The position numbers and the translations under genes were made by a program. From Eledone cirrhosa (lineage: Eukaryota), in contig OZ024742.1 of NCBI GenBank assembly GCA_964016885.1, forward strand, positions 82,274,001 through 82,338,000: 64,000 nucleotides of DNA. Reading direction: 5' to 3'. Below are positions 951 through 63,960 of the stretch, in pieces. The notes under the pieces are model-generated. The model saw nothing but the letters and a program-made list of their open reading frames with translations. It ran no database searches and had not been told where the DNA came from. Every line of letters begins with the position of its first letter. Position 1 is the first letter of the stretch.

Positions 951-981
<31 letters not shown>

Positions 982-1141
982 AATTGGAATAAATGCTCTG
1001 AAATAGCGATACATATGTGAATATAGACATAGAATATTCGAAAATATTCTGTATGTTTATAATAAACATTTTGAAGACCTAATCGCTATAGAATAGAATA
1101 CGTCACGTATTACAATTAGATTCTCGATAAAAGCAAGGGAA

Positions 1142-1184
1142 GTAATCTACGCGTTTCATTCTCGTTAGAAATCATCAGGACTAC
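1142..1184 (-). ncRNA. Minimal type I hammerhead ribozyme (also at 1452-1494, 1762-1804, 2072-2114)
   Basis: Exact reverse complement of the motif at 2259-2301. Confidence 0.93.
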
Positions 1185-2258
1185 ATATCCAGTGCTTTTA
1201 TCGAGAATGACACAGCTAGAGACTTATAGAATACTTAGCTGTGTACAGGAACTGGTTTGAAAGAGCGGTTGCCGGTCCGGCAGAAATTAGAAATTGGAAT
1301 AAATGCTCTGAAATAGCGATACATATGTGAATATAGACATAGAATATTCGAAAATATTCTGTATGTTTATAATAAACATTTTGAAGACCTAATCGCTATA
1401 GAATAGAATACGTCACGTATTACAATTAGATTCTCGATAAAAGCAAGGGAAGTAATCTACGCGTTTCATTCTCGTTAGAAATCATCAGGACTACATATCC
1501 AGTGCTTTTATCGAGAATGACACAGCTAGAGACTTATAGAATACTTAGCTGTGTACAGGAACTGGTTTGAAAGAGCGGTTGCCGGTCCGGCAGAAATTAG
1601 AAATTGGAATAAATGCTCTGAAATAGCGATACATATGTGAATATAGACATAGAATATTCGAAAATATTCTGTATGTTTATAATAAACATTTTGAAGACCT
1701 AATCGCTATAGAATAGAATACGTCACGTATTACAATTAGATTCTCGATAAAAGCAAGGGAAGTAATCTACGCGTTTCATTCTCGTTAGAAATCATCAGGA
1801 CTACATATCCAGTGCTTTTATCGAGAATGACACAGCTAGAGACTTATAGAATACTTAGCTGTGTACAGGAACTGGTTTGAAAGAGCGGTTGCCGGTCCGG
1901 CAGAAATTAGAAATTGGAATAAATGCTCTGAAATAGCGATACATATGTGAATATAGACATAGAATATTCGAAAATATTCTGTATGTTTATAATAAACATT
2001 TTGAAGACCTAATCGCTATAGAATAGAATACGTCACGTATTACAATTAGATTCTCGATAAAAGCAAGGGAAGTAATCTACGCGTTTCATTCTCGTTAGAA
2101 ATCATCAGGACTACATATCCAGTGCTTTTATCGAGAATGACACAGCTAGAGACTTATAGAATACTTAGCTGTGTACAGGAACTGGTTTGAAAGAGCGGTT
2201 GCCGGTAAGTATTCTATAAGTCTCTAGCTGTGTCATTCTCGATAAAAGCACTGGATAT

Positions 2259-2301
2259 GTAGTCCTGATGATTTCTAACGAGAATGAAACGCGTAGATTA
2301 C
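2259..2301 (+). ncRNA. Minimal type I hammerhead ribozyme (also at 2569-2611, 2879-2921, 3189-3231)
   Basis: gtagtc-CTGATGA-t ttct aacg agaa t-GAAA-cgcg-TA-gattac: stem I gtagtc/gattac, stem II ttct/agaa, palindromic CGCG stem III, GUA cleavage triplet. Confidence 0.93.
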
Positions 2302-3363
2302 TTCCCTTGCTTTTATCGAGAATCTAATTGTAATACGTGACGTATTCTATTCTATAGCGATTAGGTCTTCAAAATGTTTATTATAAACATACAGAATATT
2401 TTCGAATATTCTATGTCTATATTCACATATGTATCGCTATTTCAGAGCATTTATTCCAATTTCTAATTTCTGCCGGACCGGCAACCGCTCTTTCAAACCA
2501 GTTCCTGTACACAGCTAAGTATTCTATAAGTCTCTAGCTGTGTCATTCTCGATAAAAGCACTGGATATGTAGTCCTGATGATTTCTAACGAGAATGAAAC
2601 GCGTAGATTACTTCCCTTGCTTTTATCGAGAATCTAATTGTAATACGTGACGTATTCTATTCTATAGCGATTAGGTCTTCAAAATGTTTATTATAAACAT
2701 ACAGAATATTTTCGAATATTCTATGTCTATATTCACATATGTATCGCTATTCCAGAGCATTTATTCCAATTTCTAATTTCTGCCGGACCGGCAACCGCTC
2801 TTTCAAACCAGTTCCTGTACACAGCTAAGTATTCTATAAGTCTCTAGCTGTGTCATTCTCGATAAAAGCACTGGATATGTAGTCCTGATGATTTCTAACG
2901 AGAATGAAACGCGTAGATTACTTCCCTTGCTTTTATCGAGAATCTAATTGTAATACGTGACGTATTCTATTCTATAGCGATTAGGTCTTCAAAATGTTTA
3001 TTATAAACATACAGAATATTTTCGAATATTCTATGTCTATATTCACATATGTATCGCTATTCCAGAGCATTTATTCCAATTTCTAATTTCTGCCGGACCG
3101 GCAACCGCTCTTTCAAACCAGTTCCTGTACACAGCTAAGTATTCTATAAGTCTCTAGCTGTGTCATTCTCGATAAAAGCACTGGATATGTAGTCCTGATG
3201 ATTTCTAACGAGAATGAAACGCGTAGATTACTTCCCTTGCTTTTATCGAGAATCTAATTGTAATACGTGACGTATTCTATTCTATAGCGATTAGGTCTTC
3301 AAAATGTTTATTATAAACATACAGAATATTTTCGAATATTCTATGTCTATATATATATATATA

Positions 3364-7366: not shown

Positions 7367-7626
7367 CACCTTGATCACCTTGTCCGACCAGTCTGTCGAG
7401 CACCAATCGGCGCCGCTGGTAACAGCACGTCGTGCTGTTTTAGCCGTAAGATAACGCCATCCCACTGGCTGGGCGGGCAGGCCGGTACTCATTTATACAG
7501 CTGAGTAAACTGGAGCAACGTAAAATAAAGTGTCTTGCCAAGGAAACAACACATCACCCGGTCCGAGATTTGAACTCACAACCTTTCGGTTGCAAGCCCA
7601 ATGCTCTAACCACTAAGCCATGCGCC
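7367..7626 (-). mobile_element. tRNA-derived SINE family 2
   Basis: Minus strand starts ggcgcaTGGCTTAGTGGttagagc...GAGTTCAAATC (Pol III A and B boxes), followed by a tRNA-unrelated body. Confidence 0.8.
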
Positions 7627-10844: not shown

Positions 10845-11236
10845 CTAGCAGATTTACCCGGCGTTGCTCGGGGTTTGAAATTATGCTAAGACTATACAGC
10901 TAGGAAGTAAATGAAGAAAAGTATTTGTCCCCAAGCTGTCAAAATAAGCAGTCTCATTATAAGGATTGTCAATAAAGTTGGTTATCTCCCTTTTTTATAA
11001 GGATCGTCAATAAAGTTGGTTATCTCGCTTACATCAATTATGCTACCGATAATTTAGACATCGATGTTTTATTACTCAACGTGGGTCGATTGGAAAAATG
11101 TTTGTGATATGACCATCTTAGCGACCTATGCAACGTGCACCAACACATTTAGACAAATTCGGTCGGTAATTGTAAAAGCCTTAGGTATCCAACGTTGTAC
11201 ACTGACACACACACATCCTCGCTTTTATATATATAA

Positions 11237-11239
<3 letters not shown>
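10845..11239 (-). mobile_element. Non-autonomous Helitron
   Basis: Minus strand a|TCtttatatatataaaag...cccgagcaacgccgggt aaatctg CTAG|t: 5'-TC, subterminal GC hairpin, 3'-CTAG, AT target. Confidence 0.8.
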
Positions 11240-11273
<34 letters not shown>

Positions 11274-11724
11274 ATATTAACAAATGGAAACTATATTTAT
11301 AAAACCATATTTATTTCATTATACATATTTCAAGGGCCACCAGTGCAAATTATGGTGCGCTTTCAGTAGATAAAATATAATATAGGTTAGTTTTATAAAT
11401 AGATATTGACATTCCCTTAAAAAATGCAACCATTACGGTTGGAATCTCCTGGATAGTGGAGTTATTAGATTTATTATTGGTTTATTAGGCAAATAGTGTT
11501 GGAAAGGTTTAAAGCAGTATATTTAAATTAGTATATTTAAATTAAGCCGCTGGAATAGATTCCAACCAGAATGGTTCCATTTTTTAATGAAATAAATATG
11601 GTTTTATAAATATAGTTTCCATCTGTTAATATATTGTATATTTACACCAATAAATTGTTGAGTGCTTTATATCAGTTATAAAAATATTTAGCTTGTTGTA
11701 TCCCAACAAATTAAATATAACCTC

Positions 11725-11786
<62 letters not shown>

Positions 11787-11855
11787 AGTATGTATGTATA
11801 CGTACATACATATATGTATACAGACGTACAGTAGCATGCACATATATATATATAT

Positions 11856-11915
<60 letters not shown>

Positions 11916-12077
11916 GCATACAGGTACACATACATATATGCACGCATCAGATTAGCCTACGTTTATTATAACGCCGGCCGCTTTGTTCGTTTGTTTGTCA
12001 ACAAAGCGAACAGCCTGAATTTATGCCATACGGTGTTAAGGCAACCACGTCACCTTTTTGTTCAACACTGACACAGG

Positions 12078-12122
12078 AACGATGTACTAGTTTCAAGCTT
12101 GTTAGCTATCATCAGCACCGTT
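12078..12122 (-). ncRNA. Minimal type I hammerhead ribozyme (also at 12607-12651, 13128-13172)
   Basis: Reverse complement of the motif at 13697-13741. Confidence 0.93.
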
Positions 12123-12376
12123 TACCCATCTGCCAGATAGTTGAACGTTCGAAAGTATATACTTTCCTTATGAAAATTAACGGCTGAGCAGCCTAATTTG
12201 CATATTGAGTGAGTTAAATCGGTCAGGCATACCGAAAACGATTAGTTGAAAAAAAATGAAAACGAAATTTCATTTCTCACTCTTAGTATGGCACTTACTT
12301 AAATGTAAGTATGTATGTATACGTACATACATATATGTATACAGACGTACAGTAGCATGCACATATATATATATAT

Positions 12377-12444
<68 letters not shown>

Positions 12445-12905
12445 GCATACAGGTACACATACATATATGCACGCATCAGATTAGCCTACGTTTATTATAA
12501 CGCCGGCCGCTTTGTTCGTTTGTTTGTCAACAAAGCGAACAGCCTGAATTTATGCCATACGGTGTTAAGGCAACCACGTCACCTTTTTGTTCAACACTGA
12601 CACAGGAACGATGTACTAGTTTCAAGCTTGTTAGCTATCATCAGCACCGTTTACCCATCTGCCAGATAGTTGAACGTTCGAAAGTATATACTTTCCTTAT
12701 GAAAATTAACGGCTGAGCAGCCTAATTTGCATATTGAGTGAGTTAAATCGGTCAGGCATACCGAAAACGATTAGTTGAAAAAAAATGAAAACGAAATTTC
12801 ATTTCTCACTCTTAGTATGGCACTTACTTAAATGTAAGTATGTATGTATACGTACATACATATATGTATACAGACGTACAGTAGCATGCACATATATATA
12901 TATAT

Positions 12906-12965
<60 letters not shown>

Positions 12966-13426
12966 GCATACAGGTACACATACATATATGCACGCATCAG
13001 ATTAGCCTACGTTTATTATAACGCCGGCCGCTTTGTTCGTTTGTTTGTCAACAAAGCGAACAGCCTGAATTTATGCCATACGGTGTTAAGGCAACCACGT
13101 CACCTTTTTGTTCAACACTGACACAGGAACGATGTACTAGTTTCAAGCTTGTTAGCTATCATCAGCACCGTTTACCCATCTGCCAGATAGTTGAACGTTC
13201 GAAAGTATATACTTTCCTTATGAAAATTAACGGCTGAGCAGCCTAATTTGCATATTGAGTGAGTTAAATCGGTCAGGCATACCGAAAACGATTAGTTGAA
13301 AAAAAATGAAAACGAAATTTCATTTCTCACTCTTAGTATGGCACTTACTTAAATGTAAGTATGTATGTATACGTACATACATATATGTATACAGACGTAC
13401 AGTAGCATGCACATATATATATATAT

Positions 13427-13484
<58 letters not shown>

Positions 13485-13696
13485 GCATACAGGTACACAT
13501 ACATATATGCACGCATCAGATTAGCCTACGTTTATTATAACGCCGGCCGCTTTGTTCGTTTGTTTGTCAACAAAGCGAACAGCCTGAATTTATGCCATAC
13601 GGTGTTAAGGCAACCACGCAAATTAGGCTGCTCAGCCGTTAATTTTCATAAGGAAAGTATATACTTTCGAACGTTCAACTATCTGGCAGATGGGTA

Positions 13697-13741
13697 AACG
13701 GTGCTGATGATAGCTAACAAGCTTGAAACTAGTACATCGTT
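13697..13741 (+). ncRNA. Minimal type I hammerhead ribozyme (also starting at 14224, 14747, 15246, 15769, 16278)
   Basis: aacggtg-CTGATGA-t agct aaca agct t-GAAA-ctag-TA-catcgtt: 7-bp stem I, 4-bp stem II, palindromic CTAG stem III, GUA site. Confidence 0.93.
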
Positions 13742-13903
13742 CCTGTGTCAGTGTTGAACAAAAAGGTGACGTGGTTGCCTTAACACCGTATGGCATAAAT
13801 TCAGGCTGTTCGCTTTGTTGACAAACAAACGAACAAAGCGGCCGGCGTTATAATAAACGTAGGCTAATCTGATGCGTGCATATATGTATGTGTACCTGTA
13901 TGC

Positions 13904-13969
<66 letters not shown>

Positions 13970-14142
13970 ATATATATATATATGTGCATGCTACTGTACG
14001 TCTGTATACATATATGTATGTACGTATACATACATACTTACATTTAAGTAAGTGCCACACTAAGAGTGAGAAATGAAATTTCGTTTTCATTTTTTTTCAA
14101 CTAATCGTTTTCGGTATGCCTGACCGATTTAACTCACTCAAT

Positions 14143-14195
14143 ATGCAAATTAGGCTGCTCAGCCGTTAATTTTCATAAGGAAAGTATATACTTTC
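14143..14195 (+). promoter_or_regulatory. Octamer ATGCAAAT plus PSE-like motif upstream of the HHR in each B1 unit (candidate internal snRNA-type promoter)
   Basis: atATGCAAATtaggctgcTCAGCCGTTAATTTTcataagGAAAGT. The octamer and aattttcata are conserved in the diverged B2 unit. Function is inferred. Confidence 0.4.
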
Positions 14196-14430
14196 GAACG
14201 TTCAACTATCTGGCAGATGGGTAAACGGTGCTGATGATAGCTAACAAGCTTGAAACTAGTACATCGTTCCTGTGTCAGTGTTGAACAAAAAGGTGACGTG
14301 GTTGCCTTAACACCGTATGGCATAAATTCAGGCTGTTCGCTTTGTTGACAAACAAACGAACAAAGCGGCCGGCGTTATAATAAACGTAGGCTAATCTGAT
14401 GCGTGCATATATGTATGTGTACCTGTATGC

Positions 14431-14492
<62 letters not shown>

Positions 14493-14959
14493 ATATATAT
14501 ATATATGTGCATGCTACTGTACGTCTGTATACATATATGTATGTACGTATACATACATACTTACATTTAAGTAAGTGCCATACTAAGAGTGAGAAATGAA
14601 ATTTCGTTTTCATTTTTTTTCAACTAATCGTTTTCGGTATGCCTGACCGATTTAACTCACTCAATATGCAAATTAGGCTGCTCAGCCGTTAATTTTCATA
14701 AGGAAAGTATATACTTTCGAACGTTCAACTATCTGGCAGATGGGTAAACGGTGCTGATGATAGCTAACAAGCTTGAAACTAGTACATCGTTCCTGTGTCA
14801 GTGTTGAACAAAAAGGTGACGTGGTTGCCTTAACACCGTATGGCATAAATTCAGGCTGTTCGCTTTGTTGACAAACAAACGAACAAAGCGGCCGGCGTTA
14901 TAATAAACGTAGGCTAATCTGATGCGTGCATATATGTATGTGTACCTGTATGCATATGT

Positions 14960-14991
<32 letters not shown>

Positions 14992-15452
14992 ATATATATA
15001 TATATGTGCATGCTACTGTACGTCTGTATACATATATGTATGTACGTATACATACATACTTACATTTAAGTAAGTGCCATACTAAGAGTGAGAAATGAAA
15101 TTTCGTTTTCATTTTTTTTCAACTAATCGTTTTCGGTATGCCTGACCGATTTAACTCACTCAATATGCAAATTAGGCTGCTCAGCCGTTAATTTTCATAA
15201 GGAAAGTATATACTTTCGAACGTTCAACTATCTGGCAGATGGGTAAACGGTGCTGATGATAGCTAACAAGCTTGAAACTAGTACATCGTTCCTGTGTCAG
15301 TGTTGAACAAAAAGGTGACGTGGTTGCCTTAACACCGTATGGCATAAATTCAGGCTGTTCGCTTTGTTGACAAACAAACGAACAAAGCGGCCGGCGTTAT
15401 AATAAACGTAGGCTAATCTGATGCGTGCATATATGTATGTGTACCTGTATGC

Positions 15453-15514
<62 letters not shown>

Positions 15515-15975
15515 ATATATATATATATGTGCATGCTACTGTACGTCTGTATACATATATGTATGTACGTATACATACATACTTACATTTAAGTAAGTGC
15601 CATACTAAGAGTGAGAAATGAAATTTCGTTTTCATTCTTTTTCAACTAATCGTTTTCGGTATGCCTGACCGATTTAACTCACTCAATATGCAAATTAGGC
15701 TGCTCAGCCGTTAATTTTCATAAGGAAAGTATATACTTTCGAACGTTCAACTATCTGGCAGATGGGTAAACGGTGCTGATGATAGCTAACAAGCTTGAAA
15801 CTAGTACATCGTTCCTGTGTCAGTGTTGAACAAAAAGGTGACGTGGTTGCCTTAACACCGTATGGCATAAATTCAGGCTGTTCGCTTTGTTGACAAACAA
15901 ACGAACAAAGCGGCCGGCGTTATAATAAACGTAGGCTAATCTGATGCGTGCATATATGTATGTGTACCTGTATGC

Positions 15976-16023
<48 letters not shown>

Positions 16024-16484
16024 ATATATATATATATGTGCATGCTACTGTACGTCTGTATACATATATGTATGTACGTATACATACATACTTACATTTA
16101 AGTAAGTGCCATACTAAGAGTGAGAAATGAAATTTCGTTTTCATTTTTTTTCAACTAATCGTTTTCGGTATGCCTGACCGATTTAACTCACTCAATATGC
16201 AAATTAGGCTGCTCAGCCGTTAATTTTCATAAGGAAAGTATATACTTTCGAACGTTCAACTATCTGGCAGATGGGTAAACGGTGCTGATGATAGCTAACA
16301 AGCTTGAAACTAGTACATCGTTCCTGTGTCAGTGTTGAACAAAAAGGTGACGTGGTTGCCTTAACACCGTATGGCATAAATTCAGGCTGTTCGCTTTGTT
16401 GACAAACAAACGAACAAAGCGGCCGGCGTTATAATAAACGTAGGCTAATCTGATGCGTGCATATATGTATGTGTACCTGTATGC

Positions 16485-16546
<62 letters not shown>

Positions 16547-16678
16547 ATATATATATATATGTGCATGCTACTGTACGTCTGTATACATATATGTATGTAC
16601 GTATACATACATACTTACATTTAAGTAAGTGCCATACTAAGAGTGAGAAATGAAATTTCGTTTTCATTTTTTTTCAAC

Positions 16679-16757
<79 letters not shown>

Positions 16758-28302: not shown

Positions 28303-30197
28303 TTAATTGTAAGTTGTGATGTTGTTATTCCATTCATGTTTTCTATTTAATTTTGGTTGGAGTTCATTTATGATTATTGCCTCTGTCATTTGTCTAAACA
28401 TTGCGTCTTTTCTGTGTGTAGATTTTATTTTTATTTCTATGTTCTCTAATTTGCCCTTATGTTCTATTTTAGTATGTTGGTGGAGTGCTATTGACTTGTT
28501 TGCATCTTGAAGCTCACGCCAGTGTTCATTTAATCGCTCTCCTCTACTACGAACTGTCTCACCTATGTACACTATATTCTTATCTTTACATTGTCCGTCA
28601 GTACATATTATGCTTTATACTATGTTTATAGATTTACAGTTAATATGTGGGCTAAGTTTACAGATTATGCATTTCTTATCTATACAGGGAGGTCTTTGAA
28701 AAGGGTATGTATTATTAATAAGTGTTTTTATGGAGGTACTTGTTCTTTGTACAATGTTAATATTTAGTTTAAGTTTATATAGAGCCCTTCTAAATTTGTA
28801 AGCTAGTTCACCTATAGGGGTTGTATTGATGAACATTACACTCTGGTATGTATTGCTATCATACCATGAGTTTATTCTATTAACCTTATTCCTAGTTCTT
28901 TCTATTCTATTCCAAAATGTTCTCCTATACAAGGGGCAGGTCCCATTTGTATCATTGTTTACCATTTTTTCCCATTTGGTTCTGGCTCGTCTATATACTC
29001 TGATTTTATCTCTCTGATTGTAATCAGAGAACTGCATACGGTAGATGAAGTGTTGTATGTGTCTCTCTAGTTCTTTGGGGTTACACATGCGGGACACGTT
29101 TCTCATCACCCGTACCAAATCCGCAATCAGTATGTTGAATTTTGTGTGATCTGAAACAGCTGAGTTTCGGTGGATCAGATATTTGGAAATCATGGGTTGG
29201 CATAATGGGAATGGAGGATTTGTTTTTTGTTATTAATGGTTTTTAAAGAGAGCTCTGTGTCTAGTACAGGTAATCTATGGTTGGGGTGTTTGCTTGGGTA
29301 GTCTATAGTAACACTAATACTCTGGTGGATGGAGTTAGCAATTTGCTGGATGCTTTCCATGGTATTTTTCTCTAATTCCTGACTGTTCTCTAGTGAGGGT
29401 GTTTTTACTACGATGTTTATATCATCAACGCAACGAGAGTACATTATCAGGGTTAAGAGGTTGTTGTCTTCTAATTGTTCTTTAAGTTTATTGTCCCACC
29501 ATACCATGAATAGGGTAGCTATGTCACCTGCAATGCTAACATCAATGGCTGCTCCCTCCTCTTGGGCATATGTTATTCCATTAAATTTGAACATATGTTC
29601 CTTAAGGTTTAGTTTTATGCTGGCCCCCACCGCATGTGCAATAATTTTCTTTAGTTCATCGTGGTTTTCGGGGTTCCGTATGACTCTGTTCCACCCGTTC
29701 CATCTTTCTGTGTTGGTTTTCTGGGCCATTGAGGTAATGGTAGAAGGTCTTGCTCTTGCTGGCCTTGTGCGGCATAGGTTGCTAAGGTCACACGTATCTA
29801 GATAATCATTACTATAAGTAAGTTTAAGTAGGAGTCCCAGCTCACTGGTATCAATCCTACGGAATCCAACATTGCTGTCACTGATCATTTCTACGCATTT
29901 CTCCACAGCAAATTCCACGTCAATGGATGGATATAGGGACACAACATCCATACTACCTATTATACTGTCTGTTAGGTTCCTAGATCGGTTATTTTCGCTG
30001 ATTCTGCTGAGGAGGTCCTCCGTGCTGTCACATATATCCGGGGACATTTCAATGATGGAGCGTATTATCAGGGAGAGGAAGTAGGAAAGTCTGTAGTTAC
30101 AAGCAATGTTAGCTACACAGACTGGCCGTGTTGGTGGTCCTGTGACTGGGTCACTGTTGGTCTTATGGTCTTTTCGAGCGCAATACAACGCTGGCAC
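28303..30197 (-). pseudogene. PLE polyprotein (RT + GIY-YIG endonuclease), frameshifted
   Basis: GSMDVVSLYPSID, QEEGAAIDVSIA, YSRCVDDIN, LPVLD; Cys linker CIDKKCIIC; YIGETVRS..ERLNEH...EAIII..QPKLN. Confidence 0.9.
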
Positions 30198-30516
30198 GTC
30201 ATTGTTCCAGGGCTGGAAGTTGTTAGCACTCCGTTTATAATAAACGGACTGCCAACAACTTCCAGGCCTGGAACAATGACGCGCCAGCGTTGTATGGGCT
30301 GGAAGTTGTTGGCAGTCCGTTGTTGGCAGGCTGGGAAATTATTGGCAGTCCGTTTATTAATAAACAGACTGCCAACAACTTCCAGGCCTAAACAAATAAA
30401 AACACACACAGACTAAGCACACAGCACACAGAAATACTAAGCACACAACACACAGAAAAACAAGATGGCGTAGGACAGAACAGAGCAGAGTCACAAAACA
30501 AAGAAAATAATCCCCA

Positions 30517-40591: not shown

Positions 40592-41674
<1,083 letters not shown>

Positions 41675-42350: not shown

Positions 42351-42935
42351 ATACATATGTGTGTTTGATTTTTCCAGGGGGGGGGGGGGCACGCTGTGTC
42401 CTTAATCCAATATATTTGGAATTTTATTTACGTATGTTTATTCTCTAGATACGTCTGAAGTACATAGAAAATCGAAAAGAAAAACACAAATATTTTTCCA
42501 TATTGAAAATTGCAGGCTAAGAGCTATTTTGGGTTCTTATTAAACAATGCTGCTGCCGGGTATGTACACAATTAGAGCCAACGAATTAAAATACTTTATA
42601 GCTGGAGGAAACAAATTAATTGCTATTGGAACATGAAAGTGGATATATCGAGGTAGGAAATGAAGGAAGCAAATGTAACTAAAATCAATGCTTCTTGTAG
42701 AAAATGTTTGTTACATGTATAAAAGTGTAAAAAGAAAATATATACACACAATTATGTAGATAGATATGTACGCACACACACACACATACATACATACAAA
42801 CATGCATGCATATATATATATTAATAAAAGGAATTGAAACTTTGTCTGATTTACGAGTTTTATTTACGATCCTTTAAAATTATAATTATTTTATAATGAA
42901 ATAGTATTGTAGAATATTAACTGTTAAATGTTAAT

Positions 42936-42974
42936 TGAACAAGTACTTTCATGCTTTCGCAATCATCAGGTTCA
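42936..42974 (-). ncRNA. pLTR type I hammerhead ribozyme (partner on + at about 48086-48123; partly deleted copy at about 43910)
   Basis: tgaac-CTGATGA-t tgc gaaa gca t-GAAA-gtac-TT-gttca. Confidence 0.88.
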
Positions 42975-43299
42975 GATTCAATGGTGACAGTCAAGTTTGC
43001 AATTTTCAACTGAAATGAGATGGGTAAAATCTGTACCTTATATACATTAAAAAGCGGCTACAGAATGCTAGGTTTTGCAGACTGTATTTCGACCAATCGG
43101 TGTGTAGTTTAACTAGATTACCAAAGCTGATTGGTTTAGGCGTAACGGTTGGTTGAGTACGTCTAACGACTCCTATTTGACCCTATCTAAAGCATCAATT
43201 GTTTGGCTATTTTTAGAAATGATGAAAATAGTATATTCTAGGATTTTTATAAAAAAATCTTCAGTAATGATCAACATCCACATCATTTTTATTATTATT

Positions 43300-43332
<33 letters not shown>

Positions 43333-44100
43333 AGTGGTGGCAGTCTGCATAGTCATAGGCGTAGTCACAGTGGAAGTAATACCCCTAAGCATTATTATTG
43401 TTCATTTAGAATTTATCAATATAATTCTTTTCTTTAATTTTTCTCTTGATTTCACTTGGGCTGTGTAATTTGTAGAATGGAAATATTATAAATATTTTCT
43501 GACCACATGTTTCTAGATGGTTACTCAGGGGTATCTGACGGACATTTGAGTCTCTGATTTGCTGTCGGTACACCGGTACACGTTCCGATTGTGCATTTCC
43601 AGTTTGACCGACATATAGTTCTTCACAAACCGGGGATTTAATGCAGTAAATTAGATTTCTGCTTTTGCAGTTCATATTTGCATTTGGGAATATTTTTGCA
43701 GTTTTTGTGTTCATATATTGACCAGTATGTATGAACTGACATGTGTAACATCGACTATTTGGTAATCAGGTGAAACTACACACCGATTGGTCGAAATACA
43801 GTCTTCAAAGGCTAGCATTCTGTAGCCTCTTTTTACTGTATATAAGACACAGATTTTACCCATCTCATTACAGTTGAAAATTGCAAACTTGACTGTCACC
43901 ACTGAATATGAACCTGAAGATTGCGACTACTTTTTCAATTAACATTTAACAGTTAATATTCTACCATACTATTTCATTATAATATCATTATAATTTTAAA
44001 GGATTGTAAATAAAAAGAGTAAATCAGACAAAGTTGGAATTCCTTTTATTAATATAATCTTCTATACACACTCATACACACCCGTGTATATTTATTTATA

Positions 44101-44153
<53 letters not shown>

Positions 44154-44172
44154 CTATTTTGTATATGCAAAC

Positions 44173-47100
44173 ATGTCTGGAAAGCAATAAATGAAATCAA
44201 CAGAATCAGAAAGAATTCTAAAGGAGATATCATGGAAATTATCAACACTTTTCAAGATGACTGGCACGCCATCCTCTATGTTAAAGGAAATAGAAAAACA
44301 ATCTACAGGCGGAAAACTTATAACTGAACATATAAACTCTGAAATTAAACATTTAGCTGAAAATTATACCAACTGTTATTAAAGATACAAGAGAAAGCCT
44401 ACCACAACCCTCTTGCATGTCAGAACTAAACGAAAGAAATTTGGAAAAAGAAACTCATCGAATAAGAAAAGAAATGTGGAAAACATGGAAAACATTTCTT
44501 AACATAAGAAAACAAAACTTCTGGAAAGCATACAAATGCGAAAAATATGTCGTAACACATTCGAAATGGCTCTCTCTAACGGCACCCATACTACCTCGCA
44601 AATACTTAATTAAAGAAATTGCAGGAGAACCAGAAGAAAAACAAAACTCTGTTGGGAACTTACATTGACAAAATTCAGAACCGACATCTCCATTACTCAA
44701 TGTAAACAATCCCGCTACAAAGCCAAATACGAAGCTATTGATGACCAAATTGAAGTCGAAATTTCGAAGCTAACGACAGGTAATAAAGCTGAAACATTAC
44801 GAGAACTATGGATCAGAGATTTCTCAAAAGAAGAAAGCAAATCAAGAAAGTTATGACAACAGAAACAATTATTTCTCGACGAAAATGCTGCAAATTACGG
44901 TAAAGACTCTCGAACTCTGAAAAAAAAGCATTAAAAGTGGACAATCTTGCCAACACAACATACGTCAGAACACGAGGCAACACAAACACTCACCTCACAT
45001 TGAATCAAAGAAGAACTACGGTAAGAACTCTTCGCTTTTTCTACAAAAACACCCTAAGGCACACAACATGAATAAAAAGCACAAACACGATAGATATTCC
45101 TTTGACCAGACCATGAGAAGTAGAAAAAACAGGAGATCATTCTCTATATCTCAACAGAGACTACCCACAAGAAACAGGGAAAAAACCCGTAGAATAACCA
45201 GTTCGCTCTCAAGATCTCAACAGAGATTACCCACAAGAAACTGGGCGAAAAAAACGATGTAAACCAGAAAGCAAACCTAGGTGATTTTCCCAGATTGTTA
45301 AAAATAATGTTAACAAGAAATGGAAAAATAATATACATAATACCAAAAATAGGACAAACAACATAACGAAACTAAGCATAATATCACGACCAAAAGTTCA
45401 TCAAGCAAACACCAACAGAGAAAAATCCAATTTGTATCGTCAGGGCAACAAAAACCGGAAAAAAGAAAAACTCCAGGAGGAAACATACCCAAAAAAACTG
45501 AACACGTAGATCATAAAATAATTAATTTATCCAAAAGAGATATTGACAATGATGAAATGCAAACTCTGTCAAAAGGACTGAAATTTACACCGACTCCAAC
45601 AGTCAACTAGCAAGAACTAATGTAGGATACCCAAGAATTCTGTCGTAAATTATGACTTGTAGAATTCTTCGCTGATAAAATAATGAGAGTGATGAATCAC
45701 TAGTAAAGAACAAATCAAATTTCACTCCGCCAAAAGGAAGAAATATCTATCTCTACCAATACATTGATATCCTGTCTCAATTTCCTCTAAGACGTAATAT
45801 TAATGTTAGGCCAAACATTAACCAATCGGAAGGGTCTACACTTAAACGTACACAAAATGATAAACAAGCAGATAAAGGGGGTGCAATTGTTATAATGGAT
45901 GCTGAATGCTACAAAAATTTGGTTGAGGAACAACTGAAAGACACAACATTCTACCATGAAATACAGTCAAATATAGACCACAACATCATGAAGAAGAACA
46001 ACAACCTGGCTTCAAAATACTACAACTAACTTACTGATAAGGAAAGAGATTATATCACCAATTTTGAGCCAAAACCCAGCAACCTGTATGGCCTACCAAA
46101 CATTCATAAGACAAAGGAAATCCAACTGGCAGTCAAAGAACAAAAAGGGGAGTACATTAAATTACTACACCCAAAAGACTTAACACTTAGATCTATTATA
46201 GCTAGTACAACATGCCCTTCCTACCGTCTAAGCAATTTTGTTGAGACTATTTTGAAACCACATACCCAGTTTTATCCGGGATGATATCGACTTCCTGTCC
46301 CATTTTCCCAAAACCACGGAAAGGAATTCACTTCTACATAGCTTTGATGTGGTAAGCCTTTACACCAACATTACACATGATTTAGAAATAAAGGCGGTGA
46401 AATACTGGGAGGAAAAACATAGAGAAGTGATTCCCACCACATTCACAGCGCCATTTATATTAGACGCACTCAGACTTATTGTGGAAAACAACACTTGTTT
46501 CTTAAATGGAAAGAATTACATTCAAATGAGAGGCACAGCGATGGGAACCAAGTTTTCTCCCATTTACGCGAACTCTGTAATGGGATACTTAGAACAACAA
46601 CTCTAACAAGAAATAGAGGAAAAATATAGCAGTGAATTTAGAAAGTGAATTGAAAAGTCTTGGAAGAGATACATTGACGTCTATTTCATCATGTGGGCAC
46701 AATCTCTAGATACTCTGGATGAGTTCAACATCCCCCTGAATAACCTCCATCAATCTCTCCAATTTACAAAAGAGATGAATAGTACAAACTACCATTCCTA
46801 GATATGATGGTAATCAAAAATGACACCACCATTACCCCGGATATACACTATAAACACACAGCCACCCATCAATATGTGAATTTTAAGTTGTGCCATCCAC
46901 CTGATACAAAACGCAACATCCCATACTGCCTAGCCAGAAGAATGTATACCATTGTAGAAGATACGAATACCAGAAACAAACGCCTAACAGAAATGAGACA
47001 AATTTTGCACAATCAAAAATACCCATCTCTACTTATATTAACAGCGGGCTATAAAAATACCTATACAACAACTTAGGACAACCCAAGGAAGAAGAAACCA

Positions 47101-47676
47101 AGAACTGGTCATACCATTCATAATGACACAGCCCATGTCACCAGAATATCTTCAGCACTGCCAAAGCAAACCTACCGACCATTTCTCAAAGTTAATAATT
47201 AAAAGGTTTAATCACAGACCGATCTTTGACTCATAGTATAAGACGGCTGAAAAAGTTTAAGCAATTACTAACAAATGCAAGGTTTGACCTCAAAAACAAA
47301 GACCAATCATTCACTGTATTTCACTGTATCTAAATGCAATGATAGTTGATGTGGCACATGTCAGTTCATACATACTGGTCAATATATGAACACAAAAACT
47401 GGAAAAATATTCCCAAATGCAAATATGAACTGCAAAAGCAGAAACCTAATATATGTCGGTCAAACTGGAAATCCACTATCGGAACGTGCATGGGTGCAAC
47501 GACAGCAAATCAGAGACCCAAATGTCCGTCAGATACCCCTGAATAAGCATCTAGCAACATGTGGTCAGAAAATATTTATAATATTTCCATTCTACAAATT
47601 ACACAGCCCAAGTGAAGTCAAGAGAAATAATAAAGAAAAGAATTTTATTGATAAATTCCAACCGAAACTAAATTAA
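44173..47676 (+). pseudogene. PLE polyprotein (RT + C-terminal GIY-YIG), multiple stops and frameshifts
   Basis: IINLSK...LSKGLKFTPTP, KQADKGGAIVIMD, LYGLPNIHK, SFDVVSLYTNI, GTAMGTKFSPIYAN, WKRYIDVY, LPFLD, NCKSRNLIY(...)YVGQTG..ER...QQI, FIDKFQPKLN. Confidence 0.92.
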
Positions 47677-48472
47677 AAATAATAATGCTTAGGTTATTAC
47701 TTCCACTATGACTACGCCTACGACTATGCAGACTACCACCACTAACAACAACAACAACAATAATAATAATACAAGTGATGTGGATGTTAATGATTACTGA
47801 AGATTGTTTATAAAAACCATAGAAAATACTATTTTCATCATTTCTATAAATAGCAAGACAATTGATACTTTGGATAGGGTCAAATAGGAGTCGTTAGACG
47901 TACTCAACCAACCGTGACGCCTAAACCAATCAGCTTTGGTAATCTAGTTAAACTACACACCGATTGGTCGAAATACAGTCTACAAAATCTAGCATTCAGT
48001 AGCCCCTTTTTACTGTATATAAGGCACAGATTTTACCCATCTCATTTCAGGTGAAAATTGCAAACTTGACTGTCACCATTGAATATGACCTGAAGATTGC
48101 GAAAGCATGAAAGTACTTGTTGAATTAACATTTAACAGTTAATATTCTACCATACTATTTCATTAAAGGATTGTAAATAAAACGAGTAAATCAGACAAAG
48201 TTTGAATTCCTTTTATTACTATAATCTTCTATACACAATGATACATACCCGTGTATATTTAATCATATATATAAATAAAGTATCGAGTATATGTTGGTTG
48301 TATAGCAACACCTCAGTATGCAGATTGGAGCACTCGACGAAATGCGCAGATTGGTTACTCCGGAGTAATGTAAAATAAACTAAAATAAATAGGTCAAATA
48401 TTTAAAATAAACGAAGCCAAATTTAAAATATTTGTCTTATTTATTTTAGTTTATTTTATATATATATATATA

Positions 48473-49218
48473 AATATATATGGATGTAAATATAATGTAT
48501 TTTGCAATACAGTTTATGCTTAATTAAAAGCATTTTGAAGACCGTAAGCTATTGTTTTAAAGTAGTGACAAATTCACTCACTTCGATCTCAGCAAACAGG
48601 AGGAGATAAGCCGACATGACATGTTTCGCTTTTGTTGAAGCTTATCAGGGCCAACTACCCCGCCCGTCTGCTGAGATCAATGATGTTATATTCTTATAGA
48701 AATCTAGTAAATAATCAGGAGCTGATTATGCAGAGCGGTTGTTGGTCAGGCAGAAATTAAAAATTAGAATTGTAGCTCTGAAATAGCAATATATATATGG
48801 ATGTAAATATAATGTATTTTGCAATACATTTAATTAAGCATAAAGTGTATTGCAAAATACATTATATTTACATCCATATATATATTGCTATTTCAGAGCT
48901 ACAATTCTAATTTTTAATTTCTGCCTGACCAACAACCGCTCTGCATAATCAGCTCCTGATTATTTACTATAAGAATATAACATCATTGATCTCAGCAGAC
49001 GGGCGGGGTAGTTGGCCTTGATAAGCTTCAACAAAAGCGAAACATGTCATGTCGGCTTATCTCCTCCTGTTTGCTGAGATCGAAGTGAGTGAATTTGTCA
49101 CTACTTTAAAACAATAGCTTGCGGTCTTCAAAATGCTTTTAATTAAGCATAAAGTGTATTGCAAAATACATTATATTTACATCCATATATATATTGCTAT
49201 TTCAGAGCTACAATTCTA

Positions 49219-49220
<2 letters not shown>
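48473..49220. mobile_element. Retrozyme-like array A2: about 317-bp unit, about 1.1 copies plus about 1.25 inverted copies, inside (TA)n
   Basis: Unit restarts at 48481 and 48798, with a strand switch at about 48829. Homologous to A1 (agagcggttg..ggtc.ggcagaaatta.aaatt.gaat...gctctgaaatagc). Confidence 0.88.
49010..49057 (+). ncRNA. Type I hammerhead, U3-A8 core variant (partner on - at 48609-48656 has C3/A8)
   Basis: agttggc c-TTGATAA-gctt caacaa aagc-GAAA-catg-TC-at gtcggct. Confidence 0.72.
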
Positions 49221-49499: not shown

Positions 49500-50619
49500 G
49501 TATGTGAGAAAGAGACGATTATTAGGAAGAAAAACTTTTTTTTTCCTTTTTTGTTTCTCTCTCTCTTTTTTCTGGGTTAGAAAATGATTAAAACGAAATG
49601 TTTACTTCGTATGAAGTGTTAAGGTTTAGTTGATTTATTTATTATTTAACAATGGCATTTATTTATCTGTTTATATATTAAATTATTTTCTATTTCCGAT
49701 TTCATCATTTGTATGCATTATCAAATGATAGTGAACTGTATTAGTGTGGTGTCGCACATGTTAAACAGAAGGTGCAGAAAGATTAATGCTATTTACAAAC
49801 AAGATTTATGAAGTGAAAAGAAAAAGGTGAAAAAACGTGCATAATGTAAAACATAAAAAGTCAATGCGGAAGAAAAAATAATGTTATTTACAAGCCAAAT
49901 CATTGAAGTTAAGCAGATCAAAATGTGTTAATATAGCAAGAGTGCCTTGTTGATCCATGATTCCGTGATGGAGGCCAATGGTGGACTGAGGCTTGATATG
50001 ATTTCCCTTTTTAGAGAGTTACTATGCAGGGGGAAGCAATTCTTGCTGGATGATATTTAATTTATTTAAGAAAAAGGATTAGGTAGGGTGTGAGGGAGGT
50101 AACTCTTGTAATTATTTGATTGTTTGTTGCAGTTTTAGATTGGTCCGATTTTTAGAGCATTAAGTAGGGGTTGAAATGTATTAATGAAATATGTTTTCTT
50201 ATTGGTTCGTTGGATGAAAGTAGCGTTGTCTATGAATTTGTAAAACGCTGTCCTTGTTTAAAATGGAATGTTGAACCTTCTATTAGATTTATGCATATGC
50301 CAGAGTTGGGCCTTCCGAATTTTGTTACTGTAGGGTTCATTATGAGGGTTTGTTGGATTTTGGCTTGTGTGAGGGTGTATTTTATGGATTTGGGTTGTCT
50401 TTTGCTCTTTATGTTGTTGTGTGTTTGAAGGATTTTGTTCATTCGTGGGTCTCTTTTTAGTAAAGGAATGTTCTGGAGGATGGTGTCGAATGCCTCATTG
50501 TTGAGGGGGTTGTGTGTGGAGATGTATGGTATGGTTTTTTGGTGGGAGGTGGTTGAGCATGTCAAGGTCGTCCCTTTTGAAGCTTTTTATATGGTTTAGG
50601 AAAGATTTAAGCAGAATAT

Positions 50620-52065
50620 CTAGGAAGTTGCTCAATAACGAACATACAACAACACTCAATAACGAACATACCCTACTAGTAACCTTTCATGTCATCAATT
50701 TATATTCCAATATCCCACACAACCTAGGTATAGAGGCAATGCAATTCTGGATGGAAAATTTCCCTAGTGAACTCCCACAACTCATCCCTAAAGAATTTGT
50801 GTTGGAGGGACTCAAATTCATCTTGGAAAACAATTACTTCGAATTCAATGCCAAATACTACAGACAGAAATGTGGGACTGCCATGGGCACGAAAGTGGCC
50901 CACTCATACGCCAACCTAGTCATGGGATATTTGGAAACCATTCTCTACCGCAAAGTTCTAGAGGAATACGGCAACCACTTCTACCAACACATATAAAAGA
51001 ACTGCAAGAGATATCTGGACGAATGCTTCATCCTCTGGCATGAAAGTATAGATAGACAGTTTGAGTTTAAAACCCTTTCTGAATCGACTCAACACAAACT
51101 TACAATTCACAATGGATTAGAGCCATGAACAACTCCCTTTCCCCGACATCCTAATCAAGAAAACAAGCAACAAAATAGAATCAGACATATACTACAAACC
51201 CACGGACTCCAACCAATACCTTCATTCAACTCGTGCCATCCTAGACACACCAAAATGGCAATTCGTTATAATCTAGCCAGAAGGATCTGCACAATAGTTT
51301 CAGATAAACACACATGCTACATACGAATAGAAGAATTAAAAAGACACTTATCAGCAGAACATACCCACCATCCCTAATCACCAATGTAATCCAACGTGCC
51401 CTAAAACTATACAACCAGGAACTCAGACACCCCAAACCCAGGAATGAACCGCAAAGAAAACTCTACCATACATCTCCACACACAACCCCCTCAATGAGGC
51501 ATTCGACACCATCCTCCAGAACATTCCTTTACTAAAAAGAGACCCAAGAATGAACAAAATCCTCCAAACAAACGACATCATAAAGAGCAAAATCCAACCC
51601 AAATCCGTAAAAAAACATCCTCACACAAGCCAAAATACAACAAACCCTCACAATGAACCCTACAGTAACAAAATGCGGAAGGACCAACTGTGGCATATGC
51701 ATAAATATAATAGAAGGTTCAACATTCCATTTTAAACAAGGACAGCGTTTCACAGTTAATCACAACTTTACATGTGCATCTGAAAACTTTATCTATGTTT
51801 TGACCTGCTCAGGTTGTCAAGAGCACTACATAGGACAGACAAAAGACAACCTACGTCAACGAGTTACCGTCCATAAATCACAAATTAAAATAGAGTAATA
51901 CAGTAAGATTGCATTTAGTGAACATATCGCCAATTGTGCTCCAAATCAACATCCAAACTTAAAAATTTTCCCCATTTACAAATTCATACACAGCGCTACT
52001 TTCATCCAACGAACCAATAAGTAAACATATTTCATTAATAAATGTCAACCCCTACTTAATGCTGT
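50620..52065 (+). pseudogene. PLE RT + GIY-YIG, disrupted
   Basis: LVTFHVINLYSNIPH, GTAMGTKVAHSYANL, RYLDEC, DIYYKPTDS; KCGRTNCGIC linker; FTCASENFIYVLTCSGCQEHYIGQT..LRQRVTVH. Confidence 0.92.
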
Positions 52066-52477
52066 AAATATCGGACCAATCTAAAACTGCAACAAACAAT
52101 CAAACATTTACAAGAGTTACCCCCCTCACACCCTACAATAATCCTTTTTCTTAAATAAATTAAATATCATCCAGCAAGAATTGCTTCCCCCTGCATGGTA
52201 ACTCTCTAAAAACGGAAATCAAACCTCAGTCCACCATTTGCCTCCATCACGTAATCATGGATCAACTAAGCACTCTTGCTATATTAACACATTTTGATCT
52301 GCTTAACTTGGCTTGTAAATAACATTATTTTTTTATTCCACATTGAGTTTTTATGTTCTAAATTATGCACGTTTTTTTCCTCTTTCTTTTTTCTTTTCAC
52401 TTCATAAACCTTGTTTGTAAATAACATTATTCTTTCTGCACCTTCTGTTTAAAATGTGCGACACCACACTAATACAT

Positions 52478-59015: not shown

Positions 59016-60360
59016 CTTCATCATCATCATCATTCGTCGACTACTGTCGAGATGATGGATCTCACTCTTATGCCCCAGAATTCCCTGTCCCCCATCGCTG
59101 CCCCCAGGTTCTTTCTACTGATTCCCGTATCCCTAGAGATAACGTCGGGGAATGACAGCCTCCTACTCCTAGCAGGCTGGAGTCAGGGTTCCAGAGCGGA
59201 TATGATTTCATTGCTGGCACGGTGACAGTGGCCAGCAAATTGAGCTCTCCGGGATTTTAGAAGGGCGGAGGCACGAGGGAGTTTGCCATAGATTTTAGAC
59301 AAGGTGGGATGTCGTTTACAGGATAGGTTTTGCACTCTCATTAAGAGGCGGGTATATGTGCCATCCAATCTCCTCTCGAGTTGTGGATGTTAGTGTCCAA
59401 GTTTCGGATCCATAAAGTAATATGGGCTTAATGGTTGCTTGGAATATTCCCAGTTTTAGCTTGTTGGTAAGTTGAGATGTCCATATGGCGTGCATGCCAT
59501 TGCACACTGACCATGCCATACCCTTCCTGGTTAGAAAATCTTTATTGGAGGAGGAGATATATGAGCCAAGATACTTGTAATCTTCCACCTGATTAAGGGT
59601 GGTACCATTAAGGGTTCTGATGTGGTAGTTTGGGCTGTTTGCGCATCTGTTCACATACTCAGTCTTGGATTCGTTGAGATACAGTCCAACACAATCGGAC
59701 ACTTGCTCTAATGACTTCAAAAGACTCTCAGCATTTTCCAGTGACCGACTGATCAATGCGATGTCGTCAGCAAAGTCGGTGTCGGTCAAGTATTTTGCTG
59801 GGTAGCGTGAGCTTCTCCTAGGCTTTAGTTGGTATCCCCTATCCTGAATCCTATCCACAGACATGCGCAAAACATAATCCACAACAATGATAAATAGATA
59901 CGGAGCGAGGATTGAGAAAGGTGGTGTGTCCCTATCTGGGGTCAGGACAGTTGATTTGGTATCTGTATACATTACACGTATGGCCGCAATGATTTTATCA
60001 GAAATCCCATAGAGTTGTAGAATTTCAAACATCCCCAACCTGTCCACTGAGTCGAAGGCTTTTGAAAAATCAACAAAGACGAGTGCAAGGTCTAGATTGC
60101 GGTTTTGGGACTCCTCTATAAGTTGGCGAAGGCAGAGAATCTGGTTAAGTGTTGATCTACCTCTCCTAAATCCATTCTGGTTGTTACGAAGGATTGGCTC
60201 AAGAAATGGGATTAAGCGGTTAAGAAGAAGCTTGTTGTATATTTTTGCAGCAATTCCCATGAGAGAAATTCCTCTATAGTTGGTGGCTAAAGAAAGATCT
60301 CCTTTTTTGGGCATGGGGATGATTTGAGCTGCATGCCAGACGCTAGGTGGTTTATTGGTC
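59016..60360 (-). mobile_element. 5'-truncated RTE-like LINE with (GAT)n tail
   Basis: RT ORF continues by frameshift to about 59040. The tail tcatcatcatcatcat is at 59018-59033. Confidence 0.88.
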
Positions 60361-60416
60361 TCGAGGTAACTTAGGTGATAGGGGAGGATACCCGTTCGAA
60401 TTTCACTTTCAAGCAT
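59316..60416 (-). pseudogene. LINE reverse transcriptase (RTE-like), truncated
   Basis: IIPMPKKGDL..NYRGISL, QNGFRRGRST, FVDFSKAFDSV, LAPYLF (QG motif deleted), DFADDIAL, YKYLGS, LLYGSETW. Confidence 0.9.
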
Positions 60417-60818
60417 GTATTGAGTGCCTAAATAAGTGTATAAATAACATTACAATGTGTTAATAATATAAGGGAACTAGACAGAAAGACCCTCACCTCC
60501 AAAATATATACATATTTGCGTAAAGTCTTTCCAGGCATATGCTTGCTCCTCGCTGAAGTGAATAAATCGTATGACCGGCTGCATATCAACAGGATATTTA
60601 TAGCTTTTGCTGATTTTATCTCAATAAAACACTGTAGCATATGTTAAATAAATGGCATACGACTTCGAAATACGTATAATGAAATAAATAGCGAGAGACT
60701 AACGTAACCGACTTACTTGTATAGTATTATACTAAAACTCCGGATAAACATAAACTATTGAGTGGTTGATATTTGTTATGTAAAGGTCGGCAGATTTTCA
60801 ATCAACCAACTTTCTCGA

Positions 60819-63029: not shown

Positions 63030-63960
63030 TAATAGTTATGTAATAAACAACATAAGGTAATTATTTCATTTACCAGTGGTTTCTTGAGGTCAAGAAATTT
63101 CCTTCCTACATTAGTTTTGACAGTTAGTTTTGTCAAAACTAATGTTGCAAGGAAATTCCTTGACCTCTTAGACAAACATTTTCATCCTAATCATAGATAT
63201 TATAAGATATCTAAAGGGTATGTAGTTAAAATTAGTTACTCTTGCTGCCCATAAATGAAGTCTAAATCACGAATTCTAATCGTACGAGAAAAAATCCAGG
63301 ATGTAGTTGCAGGATGCCGGATGAATGCTCATTACAGGGCAAATGTAACACTAAATCCGTTATATATGAGGCCAAAGTCACACCTCTATTTAACAACCAG
63401 CCAGCCAGGAGTGAACGATATGTTTTTATGACTCAGGACAGGTTTAAAACCAGGTTTTATGCACATGTCGCTTCTTTTAAACACTCCGATAAAAGAACAG
63501 CTGCGGCTTTCGCAAATAAGGTGTGGGAATTCAAGGATAAAAACATCCCGTACTCTATCAATTGCTCTATTTTAGACAATTCGAGGGAGTACCAAAGGGG
63601 CACAAATAATTGTTCTTTGTGTACCACGGAAAAATATAGGATTTTACAAAACTTGAAAGCCACTTCAACTTGCCTGAACTCCAAGACCGAGATCTTCAGA
63701 TGTTGTCCTCACCTGAAATCACATCTGATCTGTAACTGGATTGACATTCCTACGATGACTCAACCACCTTGAACTTCTTCTCTGCTATCTACGCGTTACA
63801 TCCACTACGATTTTTATTACTTTCTTAACTCACTTTCTGTACTCTTATATTCTTTTTCTCCCTTATCTCCCGTTATATTTAAACTTTTTCCTATGTCATT
63901 TATTTTCTATATTTCCACTACTTTCTAACTTACCCTTTACATACCCACCTTTTTATTTTT
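63030..63960 (+). mobile_element. 5'-truncated PLE-type fragment: GIY-YIG endonuclease end plus T/C-rich 3' UTR, with a 5' fold-back junction
   Basis: ORF 63314-63772 CSLQGKCNTKSVIYEAKV...YVFMT..FKTRFYAH..SF...CSLCTTEK..LNSKTE. Hairpin at 63086-63167. Inverted half-HHR (GAAA-ccactgg-TA-atgaaat) at about 63060-63082 on minus. Confidence 0.72.

Follow-up and report, generated by a model that had tools for sequence, protein, structure and literature searches.

This locus raises the question of how two opposed tandem arms of a non-coding, hammerhead-bearing repeat came to lie within a (TA)n run. In the window, which here means the whole 64,000-nt stretch of Eledone cirrhosa DNA that was analysed, an inverted-tandem array with a unit of about 520 bp had been proposed at 11782..16680 by a sequence-only reading, and this architecture was confirmed. 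Units of 499–529 bp were found in two opposed arms, a structure scan returned the nine expected hammerheads as identical type I motifs (three on the minus and six on the plus strand), the central strand switch was located at 13618, where the arms overlap by 1 nt, and (TA)n adjoined both outward-facing 3′ ends. The array consists of the following parts:

11728..11781, no strand: (TA)n target, left side
11782..13618, minus strand: inverted arm of 3.5 units, with its 3′ end (11782) at unit position 305 from the predicted cut, the short site A, and its 5′ end at unit position 36
13618..13618, no strand: head-to-head junction, a single base common to both arms, with no fold-back palindrome
13618..16680, plus strand: direct arm, 5.9 units; 5′ end is unit position 407, 3′ end at 16680 is the long site B (position 365)
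14262..14784, plus strand: non-coding 523-nt reference monomer, from one cut to the next; longest frame starting with Met is 66 aa (sense)
16621..16680, plus strand: 60-nt "tail" (site A to site B), at the right end only; predicted hairpin, then a U-rich run
16681..16715, no strand: (TA)n target, right side

The hammerheads were spaced by 527, 523, 499, 523, and 509 on the plus strand and by 529 and 521 on the minus strand, and an internal (TA)11–26 run was the source of this variation in unit length. A 289-nt non-microsatellite core was identical across all units, and the two single-base differences detected among units were both located outside it. The unit is low in GC, non-coding, a few hundred bp long and without LTR. 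The left flank (window 11225–11787) contains a weak inverted repeat (68%) resembling the end of another Penelope-like element (PLE), and the array is therefore inserted in the TA run of an older element. Among the public contigs listed, none spanned the junction at 13618, which is uninformative either way.

An intact type I hammerhead core was present in all nine tandem units, with stems I and II of 7 and 4 bp, the latter over a basal U.U pair, the triplet GUA and a stem III that is palindromic (ACUAGU), as had been noticed before:

12078..12122, minus strand: hammerhead motif 1, type I, predicted cut at 12085
12607..12651, minus strand: motif 2, predicted cut at 12614
13128..13172, minus strand: motif 3, predicted cut at 13135
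13697..13741, plus strand: motif 4, predicted cut after 13734
14224..14268, plus strand: motif 5, predicted cut after 14261; used for the Rfam match and covariation
14747..14791, plus strand: motif 6, predicted cut after 14784
15246..15290, plus strand: motif 7, predicted cut after 15283
15769..15813, plus strand: motif 8, predicted cut after 15806
16278..16322, plus strand: motif 9, predicted cut after 16315

No hammerhead match at gathering level was found in Rfam for the array motif; the match obtained was weak (HH9, E 0.043, 18.5 bits vs a gathering score of 52). Stems I and II covaried among 12 related motifs of the same genome, both sides changing in 9 of 14 pairs, and this score was reached by none of 500 shuffles, a control that is inflated by the kinship of the 12 motifs, one row of which is misaligned. 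The reference monomer showed a strong predicted fold, partly through its TA/TG block, and its predicted best fold did not form the full hammerhead junction; predicted folding is ambiguous. The available text of PMC4209133 describes minimal hammerheads that depend on dimers; the present hammerhead, if active at all, would work as a dimer. Its putative role may be confined to transcript processing.

Genome-wide counts were made in the 3.0-Gb animal genome containing the window. The 40-nt hammerhead gave 10,122 exact matches, and the reversed control gave none. The first 100 matches gave 52 clusters, all on contig C1 up to 69.6 Mb, and in all 14 clusters with both strands the switch was head to head. 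Besides, public runs of one organism, from another source or sample, contained the family in thousands of contigs. The array is thus not an assembly expansion, an outcome that the earlier reading had left room for and that the 10,122 exact copies contradict. With a hammerhead in every unit and thousands of copies, the proposed retrozyme-type nature of the family was upheld, and as judged from its DNA it belongs to the non-LTR retrozymes (non-autonomous PLEs).

Other insertions of similar kind were found in the window. Family A1 (981–3352) has a 310-bp unit, 4+4 hammerheads and 4,033 exact motifs genome-wide. A sister family (40689–41638) has a 466-bp unit with 78% likeness to the 520-bp unit across 59 nt; in this insertion G12A is present in both hammerheads, and a related intact-motif pattern gave about 10,900 matches genome-wide, in arrays of up to 31 units. 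A decayed, near full-length Penelope-type element (42817–48277) with an inverted 5′ copy, pLTRs and a tail of about 40 nt contains hammerheads at 42969 (minus) and 48090 (plus). A small two-armed insertion (48474–49220) has an end like that of A1 and no hammerhead by structure scan. The idea of a general mechanism, which had been drawn from the nearness of the array to A1, was borne out by thousands of copies and the same design in several families; it is this recurrence across the genome, and not the nearness, that counts as evidence for it.

The ends of the arms were surveyed in 55 regions (six around the best matches, the rest taken in positional order on contig C1, plus the window). The 3′ ends were found at two sites, A at about 305–308 and B at about 364–366 (unit position from the predicted cut). 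Of 36 minus-then-plus end pairs, the 29 contiguous ones were scored and seven non-contiguous ones were left out. All 29 contiguous two-armed insertions with both ends classed were A+B (A+A 0, B+B 0), with A on the left in 22 and B on the left in 7. Compared with independent choice by each arm, this exclusivity has a binomial p of 2e-9, with a classifier that scores sites A and B only, a few arms ending elsewhere. The claim that the ends are permuted therefore holds only in the narrow sense of two fixed unit positions for 3′ ends, 60 nt apart, and does not hold for freely permuted 3′ ends. One form of the exact site-A/(TA)n junction was counted 2,153 times genome-wide; a site-B count of 169 was set aside, the commonest junction phase having been missed. 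The unit showed an insertion bias for (TA)n, inside which a target-site duplication is indistinguishable.

The 5′ ends were scattered, and none of 55 lay at the hammerhead cut site; copying therefore passes through this site. The junction at 13618 joins unit positions 36 and 407, and most other junctions likewise join unrelated positions. The same short/long end rule was found in family A1 (9 of 10 loci, the remaining one clipped by the region edge; tail about 40 nt), in the window insertions at 40689–41638 and 48474–49220, in the decayed ORF-bearing Penelope element at 42817–48277, and in 9 of 10 pairs of a young Hydra-clade PLE family, with locus L171 (short+short) as the exception. Complementary fixed ends of this kind are the "tail plus inverted 5′ copy" signature of PLEs.

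This Hydra family, found outside the window, contains an open 821-aa ORF with RWT, DKT, CxCx5C, CxxC, and CxH motifs, and has a C-terminal nuclease, a hammerhead and a (TA)n target. Its assignment to the Hydra clade was made by comparing motifs read by eye (P0004) with the published description, with RWT in place of RWK. Nineteen other copies were 97–99.7% identical to the copy with the 821-aa ORF, a first look gave 2,236 candidates in the genome, and the tail of the family is about 95 nt. At two loci, L163 and L164, the 520-bp unit was joined directly to the Hydra ORF without a TA spacer, and short and long ends were kept across two RNAs: in L163 the short end comes from the PLE and the long end from the unit, and in L164 the short end comes from the unit and the long end from the PLE. 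L163 might have arisen by nested insertion and loss of about 35 nt. Nesting hardly accounts for L164, because about 1.5 kb of the PLE is absent and the end of the unit lies in a TA run that is missing from the ORF; the Hydra piece in it is only 93% like the reference copy. Such fusions were seen twice in 61 stretches and in none of 20 Hydra loci. Since they keep complementary ends, the Hydra element is a candidate helper.

No similarity beyond a chance 12-mer was found between the unit and the Hydra element, and no pLTR homology to the unit was found in the Hydra family or in the few other PLE families compared, including three seeded from the window. Many other PLE families are present in the genome, any of which is a possible helper, and we consider a helper from the Hydra clade to be slightly favoured by the present data. 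Long ORFs beside the unit at three further loci were false leads, namely an RTE-type LINE (L120), a gypsy-type element (L121) and another PLE behind a TA run (L125). Four PLE fragments were not recognised by Pfam, and a PDB search with the helper protein gave nothing useful.

With high probability, this array represents one young insertion of a hammerhead-bearing repeat without coding capacity, a non-LTR retrozyme, and it was probably inserted in trans by a PLE reverse transcriptase/GIY-YIG protein, most likely of the Hydra clade. The observations behind this reading are the structure and copy number, the two fixed 3′ sites with one per arm, the scattered 5′ ends, the haplotypes shared by arms (see below), the (TA)n targets and the two direct fusions with one Hydra family. 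The PLE protein, probably as a dimer, would nick both strands of the self-complementary (TA)n, and each 3′-OH would prime cDNA within the RNA, at site A for one and at site B for the other. Both cDNAs would extend 5′-ward over several units, crossing the hammerhead cut site, with a circle or an uncleaved multimer as template; they would stop at random and would then be joined head to head at points of little or no homology. This proposal would extend an in vitro result for an anole PLE, in which both strands were cut and extended, two internal start sites defined the tail, the protein was predicted to be a dimer and insertion did not need hammerhead cleavage (PMC11167929). An inverted 5′ copy, a tail at one end and a (TA)n bias are described for PLEs in the available parts of PMC8557442 and PMC3846280. 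Counted against the PLE/Hydra account are the arms that end outside sites A and B and the seven non-contiguous end pairs. Besides, no cross-mobilisation between PLE types was seen according to the available text of PMC3846280, which counts against an unlike helper, and pLTR homology was reported in 21 of 57 Xenopus families (Li et al., 2026), compared with none to Hydra here.

A bolder form of this account, which we regard as possible but rather doubtful, is that PLE insertion is a two-RNA, two-primer dimer reaction and that several unrelated retrozyme families exploit the Hydra-clade protein. The dimer could start cDNAs at the short and long sites, and could hold and switch between different RNAs, and the retrozymes would offer a two-site start element without sequence likeness to the helper. 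If true, this would name the first specific helper for an invertebrate retrozyme, and one rule would explain both the PLE tail and the inversion.

The template was approached through the haplotypes of the arms. In 22 two-armed loci, the arms diverged by 1.2% within a locus compared with 4.9% between loci (permutation p 5e-5), with one outlier pair 9% apart, which probably represents two merged insertions. TA-block patterns were private to each locus and common to both of its arms, even among loci with identical cores. Both arms of a locus derive from one source.

Within the favoured PLE-driven insertion, this source may have been a circular monomer RNA, formed through hammerhead cleavage plus ligation and reverse transcribed as a rolling circle; we give this model a substantial chance that stays short of even. 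The nine identical cores in the window, the single haplotype in both arms of each locus, the uniform arrays of 16–21 units, the absence of stops at the cut site and the covarying stems all fit a circle, and circular RNAs are reported for other animal retrozymes in the available text of PMC7229834. However, a three-unit pattern (short unit, normal unit, C>T unit) was found in both arms at L053/L202, twice in one of them, and multi-unit patterns recurred at C2:330.83 Mb; a monomer circle alone is insufficient because of these patterns, which fit a multimeric template or later duplication. Furthermore, cleavage is dispensable for PLE insertion in vitro (PMC11167929), and 8 of 9 Xenopus elements were non-cleaving (Li et al., 2026).

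Another plausible template that we would not call probable is a read-through transcript of an existing array, linear, multimeric and uncleaved (or a pair of sibling transcripts), in which the hammerhead would be a passenger. It accounts for multi-unit patterns common to both arms and is in line with the weak, minimal hammerhead motif and with the sister insertion at 40689–41638, both tandem units of which have a hammerhead with G12A. However, long uniform arrays with locus-private TA patterns require a source that is uniform and just as long, an unsystematic search yielded no parent-daughter pair of arrays, and duplication after insertion or conversion between arms could yield the same patterns.

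The inverted arm might instead stem from self-priming by fold-back (Arkhipova et al., 2013), perhaps with an antisense template, and not from priming on two strands. This process has been suggested for head-to-head palindromes of PLEs (available text of PMC3846280), and a few near-palindromic junctions, e.g., at L038, were found. It agrees poorly with the data, since the unit positions joined at most junctions are unrelated (36/407 in the array at 11782–16680); the end of the second arm at the other fixed site and the fusions with arms ending in different elements are also left unexplained, and we consider it unlikely. Satellite expansion with inversion at the DNA level, or an assembly artefact, is highly improbable: multi-unit patterns suggest some growth after insertion, but the 10,122 exact motifs are dispersed, ends are fixed with one-way polarity at many loci, TA runs vary between units, and public runs from another source or sample also contain the family.

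Compared with known systems, tandem type I hammerhead repeats are non-LTR retrozymes, for which PLEs have been proposed as helpers (available text of PMC7229834). The present family resembles those of metazoans in its non-coding tandem units with one type I hammerhead each and a GC below 45%, and in occurring as monomers to multimers in thousands of copies; the U.U at the stem II base is shared with axolotl HHR_Amex2. Retrozyme lengths are given as 170–400 nt in the available text of Cervera and de la Pena (2020; PMC7229834) and as 51–972 bp by Li, Clavereau and Pollet (2026; bioRxiv 10.64898/2026.07.22.740005). The latter range includes the present unit, which is thus not longer than known metazoan retrozymes, contrary to the sequence-only reading. 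Unlike those described in the available text of PMC7229834 and the main text of Li et al. (2026), the present elements have inverted two-armed arrays, fixed end sites and a tail; the word "inverted" does not occur in the former text and occurs in the latter only in a reference title. Unlike 21 of the 57 Xenopus families of Li et al. (2026), the unit showed no pLTR homology to the PLE families compared, and the family is described here from its DNA.

The inverted-tandem design in (TA)n, earlier taken as new, is not so, because it is a described form of PLE insertion (PMC8557442; PMC3846280). Insertions of endonuclease-positive PLEs (PMC8557442 and PMC3846280 in their available parts; PMC11167929) share with the array a head-to-head inverted copy, a tail at one end, 5′ truncation, (TA)n and two fixed start sites. 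The array differs from them in containing no ORF, in having both arms multimeric and in a tail of 60 nt vs 30–40 bp, and descriptions of PLEs give the tail as optional or as often one-ended, whereas the array family is strictly complementary (29/29). Like Hydra-clade PLEs (available text of PMC8557442), it combines a (TA)n target with a hammerhead, and the young Hydra family is fused to the unit at two loci; unlike the Hydra-clade family of this genome, the unit has no homology to the pLTR of that family, the tail of which is about 95 nt. Non-autonomous Chlamys elements, e.g., MRC1, are likewise non-coding PLE dependants with multicopy head-to-tail insertions, but they generally resemble their helper at the 3′ end and are mostly without hammerheads (available text of PMC8557442), unlike the unit here.

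No published account of a strict complementary-end rule for retrozymes, or of retrozyme-PLE fusions, was found in literature that included few subscription papers and no supplements. The element class, inverted design and size are already known, and the interest lies in the strict end rule, the arm-shared haplotypes and the candidate Hydra helper. The process of tandem and inverted PLE insertion and the mobiliser of animal retrozymes are stated as open questions in the literature. In this family, a strict end rule across thousands of young insertions is combined with a defined start element of 60 nt and a candidate helper that is nearly intact, which makes the mechanism directly testable in vitro.

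Some further elements were observed. Three other PLE families are represented by fragments in the window, which also contains a LINE reverse transcriptase (28306–30389, 50141–52081, 63099–63769, and 59316–60449 for these elements together); by their motifs, one of the PLE families is likely Neptune-type, one Penelope-type and one Hydra-type. A tRNA-like match at 7563–7620 (minus strand) is probably the head of a SINE. Elsewhere in the genome, about 25 nt of the left flank of the array at L035 (757–804 and 4429–4533) recurred inverted past its right end. Two loci, L126 (C3:199.33 Mb) and L127 (C4:182.01 Mb), contained PLE open frames of 1,257 and 1,085 aa, respectively, with Asn/Thr-rich inserts like those described in the available text of PMC3846280.
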